Assembly: GCF_003019035.1 (NCBI RefSeq)
Contig: NZ_CP027447.1
Length of the DNA stretch: 64,000 bases
Origin: Escherichia coli
Lineage (GTDB): Bacteria > Pseudomonadota > Gammaproteobacteria > Enterobacterales > Enterobacteriaceae
Reading direction: 5' to 3' (one strand)
The translations under genes were made by a program, and so were the position numbers. Of the stretch, positions 1 through 5,446 are shown one piece after another (positions within the stretch are counted from its first letter, which is position 1; each line of letters begins with the position of its first letter). The notes beneath the pieces are model-generated. The model was not told where the DNA came from and did no database searches. It worked only from the letters and a program-made list of their open reading frames with translations.

Positions 1-709
1 TATTAAATTCAGGATTGATCGATTTTCCAGTCTGTACCGCCAGGGCACTGGCAACTAACTCGTAATGTACCGCCTGGTACATTATTTGTTCGCGCTCATT
101 GATATCTTCCTCTGGCGAATACAAAATACCGGAATTAGTAAATGGACACAGGCTTTCGCTGAAATTCACCTGATTATTGATTTCGTTAAACGTCATCCAG
201 TACTTTACTTTTTCTTTATAGCGCGTGAAGACCGTTGATGCGAAGCGGATGAAAAAGTCGATCAGTTTACGGTGTCGCCAGCCACCATATTTTGTCACCA
301 GATGATAAGGCATCTCAAAATGCGAAAGCGTCACCACAGGCTGCATTCCCTGCTTCAGGCATTCATCGAACAGATCATCATAAAATTGTAAACCCTCTTC
401 ATTCGGCTCCTGTTCGTCACCTTGCGGAAAGATTCGTGTCCAGGCAATGGAAGTTCGAAAGCATTTGAATCCCATCTCGGCAAATAACTGAATATCTGTT
501 TTATAGCGATGATAAAAATCAATTGCTTCATGATTGGGATAATTAAGCCCGTCGATAATGCCTTCTGTCACTTCACGCGGCACCCCGTGAGCGCCAGCAG
601 TCATCACATCGGCGATACTGATGCCTTTTCCTCCTTCATTCCAGCCACCTTCCAACTGATGCGCGGCTACCGCGCCACCCCATAAAAAACCTTTTTTAAA
701 TCCTGACAT
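1..709 (-). CDS. Glycoside hydrolase family 1 6-phospho-beta-glucosidase (BglA/AscB-like); partial, 3' end lies beyond window start
   Basis: Minus-strand ATG at 709 gives [35 protein letters not shown], the GH1 N-terminal signature; reading frame stays open to position 1. Not in ORF track because it has no stop inside the window. Confidence 0.75.
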
Positions 710-733
710 ACACAACTCCTTAACTAAAATAGA

Positions 734-2407
734 TTACCACCAGACTTCCGCCTGGATGCCGGCCATAAATTCGTCTTTGCTGTTCTCATTAAACTTAAAA
801 TTAGATAATTCGTTATCCAGAATATTGATATACGTGCCATAGAAGCGAATTTCTGGTCGTGAACCTAAAATGCTTTCACCCACTTTCAATGCATGCCAGA
901 GTGTCGTTTTATAAGCCGATTCATTTAGTGTTACACCCTGCTGTGTTTTGTTCTGTTGCTTAAACCAGCCTAATTCAAGCCCCGTCTGATTCCATGTATT
1001 CCAGATCCAGGCCGGTCTTATTACGGTGCGAATACTGTCAAAATCACTATGAGCGCCACTTTCATAACTATAAACATCTTCGCCATGAGAATAGACAAGC
1101 GCGTTAGCCATAATAATATTGTCAGTAAGATACATCTCGCCCTGAGAGATTAAACGCCAGGCGATCCCATTGGTATGGTCACCATAGTAATAGCGACCAT
1201 GCGCCATCGTGTTACTGGCATCTGAGAAACTGGCAAAACTGCTGGCATAGGAATTATTGGCAACCTGTAACGTAAATTCATTAAACGTATCGCGTTGCAG
1301 GTTTTGCCGTAAAACAGAAGTCAGCATCCAGCTATCTTTCATTTCAAAATAACTGTCGTCATTTTCATTATCTTGTTGTTGATCCGTTTTATTAGGTGCG
1401 GAATATTTAGCCATTAATGATAATGTTGCATCATCCCATAACGGGATATTGCGATAACGAACATCCACAGAATTAGTATTCATCTGACTGGTACGCGTAA
1501 AATCACGGGAGTAAACATCGACATCATCTCGGCTTAAGGACATATCAAACAGCCCTACACCAAGTGCCCAGTTTTCAATCCCCACACCCGCAGCGACATC
1601 CGTGGTTAAGGTTTTCCAGTCCAGCATTTGGATCTCATATTGCGGGAGTTTATGTTTGCCTACCCAGAAGTCTGCCTCTGGCGCGAAGGGTAAAAAACCT
1701 CGCGTTGTCAGATAAATATCACTGAACTGCATGATATTTTCATTGGCACTGTCACCAAACCAGGCATCGTTATACTGCTCACCTACGTTGCCATCATAGG
1801 TAACGACCGCATTTGCCGTTTTACCGTCCTGATTATAAACACGCTGATTTAAGGTTAAGTCAAACCAACCGCTCATCTCGTTACCAAAACGTCCCAGAGA
1901 ACCCGCTGCATAAGTTTGTGGTGAGCCATGATTTCCGGTACCCCAACCTGAGCGAAAGTACCCCTGATAGCTGAACCCAATATCATCTTTTATATATTTA
2001 CTGATATCTTTCAGGGTCACGCTTTCGATAGTGGTTTTATCGCCTTTACTTTCAATAACGGCAATTTGCTGCGATCCATTTATAGTATGTGCTGCGGCAG
2101 ACGAGTTCTGTTCACCGTTTTCATTTTTGATGTTATCAGCAACGGGAGATGGAGCTGATATTTCGGCAAGCGAGGCCGATTGATATTTATTTTCTGTGAT
2201 GCTTTTTTGTAATGTCGAAAGTCGGAATTTATATACTCCCAGTTCATTCTGTGTTGCTCTCAGCTCTTGTTTATTTTGCGACAATTCATTTTCAAGCAGT
2301 TCAAGGCGCTGCTCTATGGTTAATTTTGTTGCCATCGCGTTCAACGGAAACAATGCTGTAATAATAGAAAAAGACAAAAGGCTGACGTTAAGCGTCTTTA
2401 TATTCAT
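734..2407 (-). CDS. Carbohydrate-specific outer-membrane porin, LamB/ScrY/BglH family, with N-terminal coiled-coil extension
   Basis: 557 aa ORF; signal peptide [26 protein letters not shown]; QNELxxxK coiled-coil repeats; aromatic-rich beta-barrel body ending in AEVWW like maltoporin C-termini. Confidence 0.7.
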
Positions 2408-2462
2408 GACTTATCCTTAAGAGTGTAATAATTTCCTCCAGCTATCGCACTGGAGGAAAAAA

Positions 2463-2780
2463 TCAGGCATGGAGCTCTTTTCTTAATGAAATAATTTCCC
2501 TGGCTAAATCCTGGCATAATATTGCATTCATCAAATGATCCTGTGCATGAACCAGAATTAAATTAACTTCTATTTTGCCACAGCCTTCATCCTGACTAAT
2601 TAACGCGGTCTGAATCTTATGCGCCTGAAGACAGGCGGATTCAGAACTGGCCATTAGCTGAGTTGCGCCCTGCCAGTCTTTTTGCCCGGCACAACGTATG
2701 GCTTCCATCGCATCAGAACGGGCCTGTCCTGCGTTGACCAGTAACTCCATAACAAGTTCTTCATCTGCAAACATCAACAT
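2463..2780 (-). CDS. PTS lactose/cellobiose-family EIIA component
   Basis: 105 aa; resembles ChbA/CelC (helical IIA with LVHAQDHLM segment); position in IIB-IIC-IIA operon. Confidence 0.8.
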   Translation of the reverse strand: MLMFADEELVMELLVNAGQARSDAMEAIRCAGQKDWQGATQLMASSESACLQAHKIQTALISQDEGCGKIEVNLILVHAQDHLMNAILCQDLAREIISLRKELHA

Positions 2781-4124: not shown

Positions 4125-4237
4125 TTTTTATACCTGTTGTTTTGGATATTTATACATCCCAATAAAGCATGTATGCCATATCCATTTTATGATGTGTGAA
4201 AAGTTAGTTCAGGTAATAGTTTAATAAAATTAGATTC

Positions 4238-4549
4238 TTACTGTTGCAGTAGTTTCATCGCAAATTCAAGAACTGCCTGTCCGTTCATGGTGCCATAGTC
4301 TTTCATCTCGATAACAGCTACAGGCATTTTCCCCTGTGCAACAGCTTCAATCTCTGGTTTCTGAAAGCGAACTTGCGGGCCAAGTAAAACAACGTCAACT
4401 TCGTTATTTTTAATTTTCCCTTTAGCCTCTGCAATCGCCAATGCGGAAATATTAACTTCAAGTGAAATAGCGTTAGCATGATCAATCATACGTTTAACCA
4501 GCATACTGGTTGACATGCCCGCAGCGCAAACTAACAATATCTTTTTCAT
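4238..4549 (-). CDS. PTS lactose/cellobiose-family EIIB component
   Basis: 103 aa; MKKILLVCAAGMSTSMLV phospho-cysteine loop typical of ChbB-type IIB. Confidence 0.8.
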   Translation of the reverse strand: MKKILLVCAAGMSTSMLVKRMIDHANAISLEVNISALAIAEAKGKIKNNEVDVVLLGPQVRFQKPEIEAVAQGKMPVAVIEMKDYGTMNGQAVLEFAMKLLQQ

Positions 4550-4747
4550 ATTTTCCCTTACTGGTATATAACAGATTACATTGTGTAAATATCATATCCC
4601 GCAGTAGCTATACGTCCTGGTACATTGATCACAGTAATACAGCACTAAAGTTGTTCAACATCAGGGTGATAATTAAACGACTCGGCCATAGGATAAACCA
4701 ATCAGGACTCAACTCCTTGTTTTCAATGGCTCTTAAAAGGTGCAAAA

Positions 4748-5446
4748 GTGATTTTTCAAAAGATTGCCCGCTTACTTAAATCCGAGATCAATGGCTATTC
4801 ATGGCATGTTGGTGATTTGTTGCCGTCAGAAGCTGAACTCGCTGTTCGTTATAATGTTTCGCGTAATACCCTGCGTAAGGCATTATCCTTGCTGGAAGGC
4901 GAAGGAATTATTCATAGAAAGCATGGTTCAGGAACATACATTCAAAAAAAGAATTTTGTTGCACACATTGATCACATGAACAGTTTCAGTGAAATTGCGC
5001 ATAAAAGCGGCAAAGAGGCAGGGAGTCAGATTATGAAATTTGAAGTGCAGGATGCTTCTCCCCCTATTGCGACTGAGCTGAATTTAGTGACTGGTGAGCA
5101 GGTTTATTACATAAAGAGACTGCGATTCATTGAGGATAATGCAGCACAATTAGAAGAAACGTGGATGTCAGTGGCACGTTTTCCTGATTTAACCGTAGCA
5201 CATATGCAAAAATCCAAATTTTCGTATATTGAGAACGAATGCGGGATCAAAATCATTGGCACCTTTGAAACTTTCTCCCCGACTTTTCCTACCCCAGAAA
5301 TCGCCAGTATTTTACGGATCAGCCCACGGGATCCCATACTTAAAATTCAGACCCAGGCTGTGGACAGTAACTCTATTCCGCTGGATTATTCGTTACTTTA
5401 CAGCAATATTTTCGAGTTCCAGGTAAAGTACTTTTTCCCGCGATAA
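4748..5446 (+). CDS. GntR/HutC-family transcriptional regulator (probable regulator of the divergent PTS operon)
   Basis: 232 aa; N-terminal GntR HTH (LPSEAELAVRYNVSRNTLRKALSLLEGEGII) with UTRA-like C-terminal domain; GTG start at 4748. Confidence 0.7.
   Translation: MIFQKIARLLKSEINGYSWHVGDLLPSEAELAVRYNVSRNTLRKALSLLEGEGIIHRKHGSGTYIQKKNFVAHIDHMNSFSEIAHKSGKEAGSQIMKFEVQDASPPIATELNLVTGEQVYYIKRLRFIEDNAAQLEETWMSVARFPDLTVAHMQKSKFSYIENECGIKIIGTFETFSPTFPTPEIASILRISPRDPILKIQTQAVDSNSIPLDYSLLYSNIFEFQVKYFFPR

Follow-up and report, generated by a model that had tools for sequence, protein, structure and literature searches.

The 64,000-nucleotide stretch of Escherichia coli DNA analyzed here (contig NZ_CP027447.1 of RefSeq assembly GCF_003019035.1; the whole stretch is called the window in the following) starts within a cluster of six genes that lies between marB and eamA. 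The cluster encodes the three parts of a sugar phosphotransferase system (PTS), an outer membrane porin, a glycoside hydrolase of family 1 (GH1) and a regulator of the GntR type. We identify this cluster with high confidence as the E. coli bgc locus, in which bgcR is transcribed divergently from bgcE-bgcF-bgcI-bgcH-bgcA. An earlier note on this DNA, made from the letters alone, had listed a GntR regulator, PTS IIB, IIC and IIA, a porin of 557 amino acids and a GH1 enzyme. All of these were recovered among the open reading frames and their domains, with the GH1 gene being cut by the start of the window. The features of the locus are the following, with positions counted from the first letter of the window.

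1..709, minus strand: 5' part of bgcA, GH1 6-phospho-beta-glucosidase (codons 1-236 of 479; the remainder lies left of the window)

734..2407, minus strand: bgcH, sugar-specific outer-membrane porin (557 amino acids; Pfam LamB and Sugarporin_N)

2463..2774, minus strand: bgcI, PTS IIA of the lactose/cellobiose family (103 amino acids with the RefSeq start; Pfam PTS_IIA, E 2.7e-32)

2802..4124, minus strand: bgcF, PTS IIC permease of the lactose/cellobiose family (440 amino acids; Pfam PTS_EIIC)

4238..4549, minus strand: bgcE, PTS IIB of the lactose/cellobiose family (103 amino acids; Pfam PTS_IIB, E 5.7e-19)

4550..4747, no strand assigned: control region between bgcR and the divergent bgcEFIHA genes (198 bp, 37% G+C; alignment of ten genera)

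4591..4596, minus strand: candidate -10 hexamer TATGAT, thirty-odd bases downstream of TGTGA

4618..4633, minus strand: CRP-like site TGTGATCAATGTACCA, agreeing with the consensus at 8 of 10 positions

4653..4678, minus strand: conserved inverted boxes GTTCA-N16-TGAAC, upstream of the CRP-like site and found in most of the ten genera

4748..5446, plus strand: bgcR, GntR/HutC-type regulator (232 amino acids, GTG start; GntR domain E 8.4e-19, UTRA domain E 6e-30)

5446..5492, no strand assigned: right cassette junction, a hairpin with 19-nucleotide arms (inverted repeat I2) between the converging stop codons of bgcR and eamA

Open reading frames together with Pfam and NCBIfam domains give the operon order IIB-IIC-IIA-porin-GH1, with the GntR gene divergent. 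The first 6.5 kb of the window are 100% identical to the chromosome of strain SCU-301, and its first 14.5 kb equal the extracted locus L001 base for base, so that the complete GH1 gene could be read from the identical SCU-301 genome (L001 7270-8709, 479 amino acids). In SCU-301 the genes follow each other as marC, marR, marA, marB, GH1, porin, IIA, IIC, IIB, GntR gene, eamA and ydeE; marB thus lies outside the window, roughly 790 bp to its left. The entire cassette spans about 6.3 kb (L001 7214-13490). For bgcI an alternative ATG at 2780 would yield a product of 105 amino acids. On the right side, the junction alignment and BLAST revealed that homology to K-12 picks up again at about 5501. The last codons of eamA (window 5,491-5,500) differ between bgc-positive strains and K-12, and the cassette boundary consequently falls inside the 3' end of eamA and not in the spacer. 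A scan of positions 1-8000 against Rfam at gathering thresholds matched no RNA family.

The control region was compared across the ten genera. The TGTGA half of the CRP-like site is invariant in all of them, and only two sites of this quality were found in positions 1-5446 on either strand, each palindromic site being hit on both strands. If the TATGAT hexamer is used as the -10 element, the center of the CRP site would come to lie near -41.5, a spacing as in class II CRP promoters. A generic promoter and terminator scan returned counts not above those for shuffled sequence. It missed TATGAT because a -35 hexamer is absent, as is expected for a class II CRP promoter. The inverted boxes GTTCA-N16-TGAAC might tentatively be regarded as a candidate BgcR operator. 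Their left arm reads GTTTA in E. coli and E. albertii (4678-4674 in the window), and this degeneration in Escherichia could explain the weakness of the E. coli promoter. Furthermore, the Shine-Dalgarno sequence and the start block in front of the bgcR GTG are conserved in the ten genera, supporting the GTG start.

The locus is already published and genetically characterized (Neelakanta, Sankar and Schnetz, Appl Environ Microbiol 2009, 75:2284). The earlier note had treated it as uncharacterized, a view that has to be given up in light of the 2009 description as the bgc operon. A later paper citing that work describes BgcR as a positive regulator of the GntR type and the operon as consisting of five genes, with the labels of IIA and IIC interchanged there. 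In the published account, the bgc substrates are the beta-glucosides cellobiose, arbutin and salicin. The wild-type operon is described as silent under laboratory conditions; one point mutation in the promoter is reported to allow its use at low temperature. A second citing paper counts four cryptic beta-glucoside operons in E. coli, namely bgc, chb, asc and bgl. The six genes of the cluster agree with the described bgc operon in identity, order and orientation, including the divergent GntR-type regulator; the species is the same, and we found no structural difference. The window also contains a CRP-like site, as expected of a CRP-dependent promoter. The porin BgcH is reportedly the product of the fifth bgc gene, and bgc expression is said to depend on CRP. 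A single point mutation in the promoter (bgc*) is likewise said to render the operon independent of BgcR, and the operon is reportedly prevalent in phylogroup B2.

The same six genes are located between marB and eamA in the uropathogenic strain CFT073, where the encoded proteins are 97.7-99.3% identical to those of the window. We take the CFT073 genes c1955-c1960 to be bgc. In a comparative-genomics paper from 2010, c1955-c1960 form a six-gene block labeled 'PTS system, cellobiose specific'. The same paper lists UTI89, HS, SMS-3-5 and several B1 strains as carrying the block, and K-12, O157:H7 and several Shigella as lacking it.

Several points weigh against the identification with bgc. The name Bgc was on none of the sampled database entries for these exact proteins, which bear generic automatic labels only, such as 'carbohydrate porin', 'PTS sugar transporter subunit IIC' and 'GntR family transcriptional regulator'. 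The -41.5 geometry proposed above is a guess. Finally, the reported restriction to B2 fits poorly with the distribution that we observed: the cassette is present, with at least 80% query coverage, in 2497 of the 5426 complete E. coli genomes (46%), among them O103:H2 and O121. This prevalence is broader than the reported B2-restricted picture, and the strain of the window itself is a commensal, isolated from a rectal swab of a healthy student. Further literature on a porin or cellobiose locus between marB and eamA was not found.

We then turned to the protein families. All three PTS components match models of the lactose/cellobiose family above the curated thresholds (PF02255 for IIA, PF02302 for IIB and TIGR00410 for IIC, the latter with 336 bits against a cut-off of 236). 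Identities to the K-12 Chb proteins amount to 37% for IIC with ChbC, 44% for IIB with ChbB and 48% for IIA with ChbA. In the alignments, Cys8 of IIB is placed at the active-site Cys10 of ChbB, and His76 of IIA at His89 of ChbA. The roles of this cysteine of ChbB and this histidine of ChbA in phosphoryl transfer are well established. Full-length BgcA reached 1031 bits against a cut-off of 624 with NF007154, the NCBIfam model for 6-phospho-beta-glucosidase. The protein is 50% identical to BglB of K-12, and the catalytic glutamate motifs TFNEIN and VENG as well as the phosphate-binding stretch S...KKRYG are aligned between the two. Judged by these assignments, the cassette appears as a bgl-like porin and hydrolase joined to a chb-like transporter and a GntR regulator.

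The resemblance to the K-12 bgl operon (bglG-bglF-bglB-bglH) is found in the porin, a paralogue of BglH, in the hydrolase, a paralogue of BglB, and in the beta-glucosides as substrates. Both operons are also cryptic and AT-rich. They differ in that the bgc transporter is a three-protein PTS of the lactose/cellobiose family, while bgl has the single BglF EIIBCA protein of the glucose superfamily. The bgc regulator is a DNA-binding GntR/UTRA protein, whereas bgl uses the RNA-binding antiterminator BglG, and the chromosomal sites are different. Indeed, neither the domains of a fused glucose-family EIIBCA (BglF) nor those of a PRD antiterminator (BglG) were found among the cassette proteins. The earlier note had spoken of a beta-glucoside-type PTS. 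This description is correct for the substrate, according to the literature, but not for the transporter family, which is that of lactose/cellobiose transporters and therefore Chb-like rather than BglF-like.

The similarity to K-12 chb/cel (chbBCARFG) raises the alternative that the cassette is a second Chb system for chitobiose or related amino sugars. Both systems belong to the same PTS family, have IIB, IIC and IIA as separate proteins and share the active cysteine and histidine. The ChbA, ChbC and ChbB equivalog models are furthermore among the best NCBIfam matches of the bgc proteins. However, the identities of 37-48% go along with scores well below the Chb equivalog cut-offs (278.5 against 760 bits for IIC, 66.4 against 157 for IIB and 104.7 against 148 for IIA). 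The hydrolase is a BglB-like GH1 enzyme and not of the GH4 ChbF type, the regulator is of the GntR type and not AraC-type like ChbR, the ChbG deacetylase is missing from the cassette, and bgc has a porin of its own. In addition, beta-glucosides are named as the substrates in the literature. We consider a chitobiose system extremely improbable. The reading that we prefer is a beta-glucoside pathway, as supported by the hydrolase and by the published substrates.

The porin BgcH matches the Pfam LamB model (PF02264) over its whole 378 positions with residues 147-557 (E 1.5e-81; 275.8 bits, cut-off 25.1). Residues 30-56 match Sugarporin_N (29.1 bits, cut-off 25.7), and a helix is predicted at 31-72. 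The protein is laid out as a signal peptide (about 1-26), a coiled coil (about 28-60), a variable linker (about 60-130) and a barrel (about 131-557). In the alignment, the A-x-A end of the signal peptide, a heptad-like coiled-coil block, the barrel and the terminal VWW are conserved. The same layout recurs in 29 homologues, which represent more than 15 genera and include BglH of K-12. BgcH and BglH show 53% identity along their entire length, coiled coil included. The conservation across homologues indicates that the porin gene encodes a genuine single protein. The N-terminal coiled-coil extension described in the earlier note is thus confirmed, and a misassembled fusion, which that note had named as a possible error, is ruled out.

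A search of the PDB with the single BgcH sequence gave no match. A profile built from the homologues had ScrY as its sole PDB match (E 3.9e-08). An AlphaFold model based on the 29 homologues was of moderate quality (mean predicted local distance difference test score, pLDDT, of 60.8), with the barrel half mostly at 70-93. The top five PDB matches of this model were maltoporin and ScrY structures (E 2e-20 to 2e-14; template modeling score of 0.69, normalized by the target), and general porins followed well behind. Maltoporin and ScrY are 18-stranded in their structures. Relative to ScrY (1A0S) and LamB (1MAL, 1MPR), BgcH belongs to the LamB family and has an N-terminal periplasmic coiled-coil extension like that of ScrY, but it is only 18-25% identical to these proteins, and its linker between coiled coil and barrel comprises about 70 variable residues of low complexity.

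Porins 49-60% identical to BgcH were also observed in Erwinia, Winslowiella, Pectobacterium, Klebsiella and Enterobacter with no bgc PTS genes nearby. These are probably BglH-type porins or other paralogues. Their occurrence apart from a bgc PTS indicates that the porin subfamily is larger than its two members in E. coli.

Taken together with the literature, the locus can be described with high confidence as encoding all steps needed for the use of small beta-glucosides, among them cellobiose, arbutin and salicin, in one self-contained pathway. BgcH would act as a trimeric, 18-stranded channel of the LamB/ScrY type that carries the sugar across the outer membrane. In the inner part of the route, phosphate would pass from EI and HPr to His76 of IIA, then to Cys8 of IIB and finally to the sugar in IIC, coupling import with phosphorylation. 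BgcA would then cleave the 6-phospho-beta-glucoside into glucose-6-phosphate and glucose or an aglycone. The promoter would be weak, CRP-dependent and situated in the 198-bp region, and transcription would require BgcR (GntR/UTRA) as an activator. The present analysis itself established the identities and families of the genes, the conservation of the catalytic residues and of a CRP-like site, and the position and distribution of the locus. In this scheme the substrates, the activator role of BgcR and the crypticity are derived from the literature; the promoter geometry and the BgcR operator are what we infer.

The presence of a dedicated porin had been taken in the earlier note as a hint toward uptake of an oligosaccharide that general porins could not pass because of its size. 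In a stronger form, the porin would signal a larger oligosaccharide, for example cellodextrins barred from OmpF/OmpC, and cellobiose and the aryl-glucosides would be side substrates only. The wild-type operon is described as cryptic on the sugars that were tested, and hence the real inducer or substrate may differ from them. LamB-family channels can pass oligomers, as maltoporin does for maltodextrins, and the conservation of an intact cassette in many genera argues for a selected function. Other points speak against this reading. The nearest characterized relative of the porin is BglH, with the 53% identity given above. The bgl operon, to which BglH belongs, handles arbutin, salicin and cellobiose, and each of these is well below the size limit of general porins. 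The cassette encodes no secreted or periplasmic glycanase and no hydrolase beyond the single GH1 enzyme, IIC proteins of the lactose/cellobiose family are known for disaccharides, and the published substrates of bgc are small. Systems for disaccharides also have porins of their own, such as ScrY for sucrose, and a specific porin consequently does not imply large substrates. We therefore regard an oligosaccharide substrate as very unlikely. For the pathway of small beta-glucosides favored here, a role of the porin in facilitated diffusion at low substrate concentration is more likely.

How the cassette came to its present position was addressed by synteny comparison, which the earlier note had proposed along with a comparison of the porin and IIC; the latter gave BglH and ChbC as the K-12 counterparts, at the identities reported above. 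The marB-eamA site is empty in K-12 and occupied in CFT073, SCU-301 and E. albertii. In a K-12 derivative the gap between marB and eamA measures 30 bp and contains only a small hairpin. The K-12 arrangement given in the earlier note, with the two genes side by side, is correct, and the accessory status of the cassette claimed there is borne out. Nearly all of the complete E. coli genomes outside the 46% match the window from about 5501 onward only, that is, with eamA alone. Within E. coli, cassette alleles differ by 2-2.6%. In E. albertii the cassette is located beside marB as well, and its DNA identity to the E. coli cassette (82.8%) is close to the value for the neighboring mar region (81.7%). 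The same site and the flank-like divergence favor presence of the cassette in the common ancestor.

Outside Escherichia, the whole cassette of 6.2 kb occurs with the same order and boundaries at about 73% DNA identity in a Citrobacter sp. and in Salmonella enterica subsp. diarizonae, in flanks unrelated to those of E. coli. Erwinia psidii retains the full cassette order. The GH1 gene is placed upstream of the regulator in Kluyvera, Raoultella, Klebsiella, Enterobacter, Cedecea, Buttiauxella and Ewingella, where IIA was sometimes undetected.

A recent horizontal acquisition in the bgc-positive E. coli lineages could be suspected from the G+C content of the cassette (42.8%, against about 49% in the flanks), from its occurrence in the unrelated flanks of Citrobacter and S. 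enterica subsp. diarizonae, and from the fact that among the Escherichia species representatives it was found only in E. albertii. However, neither annotation nor a repeat search revealed an integrase, an insertion sequence (IS) element or transposase, a tRNA target or flanking direct repeats, and the junctions are clean. No real plasmid-borne copy was encountered, the few E. coli records labeled as plasmids being of chromosome size or content. The shared marB site and flank-like divergence in E. albertii likewise speak against a recent arrival, and allele differences of 2-2.6% correspond to species-level depth.

Independent losses point in the same direction. In strain 2017.17.01CC (L038 5,863-6,001), a 6.7-kb deletion has taken bgc together with the 3' part of eamA; beside marB, 83 bp from the 3' end of the GH1 gene have remained. 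This remnant proves a secondary loss from a bgc-positive ancestor. IS3 splits bgcH in 2 of the 14 bgc-positive genomes of an evenly spaced sample, including 2017.10.01CC (L040 1,232-4,166). Empty sites of the K-12 type and of the O157 type contain diverged versions of the same hairpin spacer, and the empty state must consequently be old as well. A recent acquisition is in our view unlikely. We conclude that presence or absence of the cassette at the marB-eamA junction is a polymorphism of old standing and that the cassette is not a recently mobilized island.

To the right of the cassette junction the window continues with two genes that were assigned by NCBIfam models.

5491-6411, minus strand: eamA (NF008523, 629 bits against a cut-off of 472)

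6585-7772, plus strand: ydeE (above the NCBIfam equivalog cut-off)

A divergent class of eamA (80-90% identity) comprises 335 records. We considered such alleles as a mark of an alternative island at this site and rejected the idea, as marB was found directly beside eamA in the one genome that was examined. This was the O157-like strain 109 (L037), which has no bgc cassette, an eamA 88.9% identical to that of the window and a ydeE interrupted by a prophage.

Further features were noted in the remainder of the window. The gene ydeJ (2-oxo-tetronate isomerase) is reduced to a remnant of 81 bp at 9,991-10,071, both here and in CFT073, while K-12 has the full gene of 519 bp; the stretch from 9.5 to 10 kb adjoining this remnant has a G+C content of 37%. 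From about 17,070 to 63,950, most of the remaining window is taken up by a Qin-like lambdoid prophage that is inserted in ydfJ and contains dicB, relBE, hokD, cspB/F/I and pinQ. In its structural region (about 22,900-41,700, 57-59% G+C), some 15 genes for terminase, portal, capsid, tape measure and gpJ functions are annotated as frameshifted, which reflects either decay or homopolymer sequencing error. Within the prophage, a gene at about 54,303-55,942 on the minus strand is annotated as 'Kiwa anti-phage protein KwaB-like domain-containing protein', and the hypothetical protein of 204 amino acids preceding it could be the KwaA partner.

What the present analysis adds to the published description is modest: the prevalence, the exact boundaries of the cassette, the E. 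albertii site, the contexts in other genera, examples of decay and a footprint of the control region. The link to bgc provides a substrate-level annotation for about 2500 complete E. coli genomes, and otherwise its significance is small. The polymorphism next to the mar locus is a convenient strain marker, and the continuing decay of a silent catabolic operon shows in its independent deletions and its IS3 insertions. We also considered that wild-type bgc is perhaps not truly cryptic: a beta-glucoside found in nature, for example one from plants or diet, or a condition like low temperature outside the host might induce it. This appears rather improbable. Should the GTTTA arm account for a weak promoter in E. 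coli, one would expect inducible cassettes in Citrobacter, Salmonella diarizonae, Raoultella and others.

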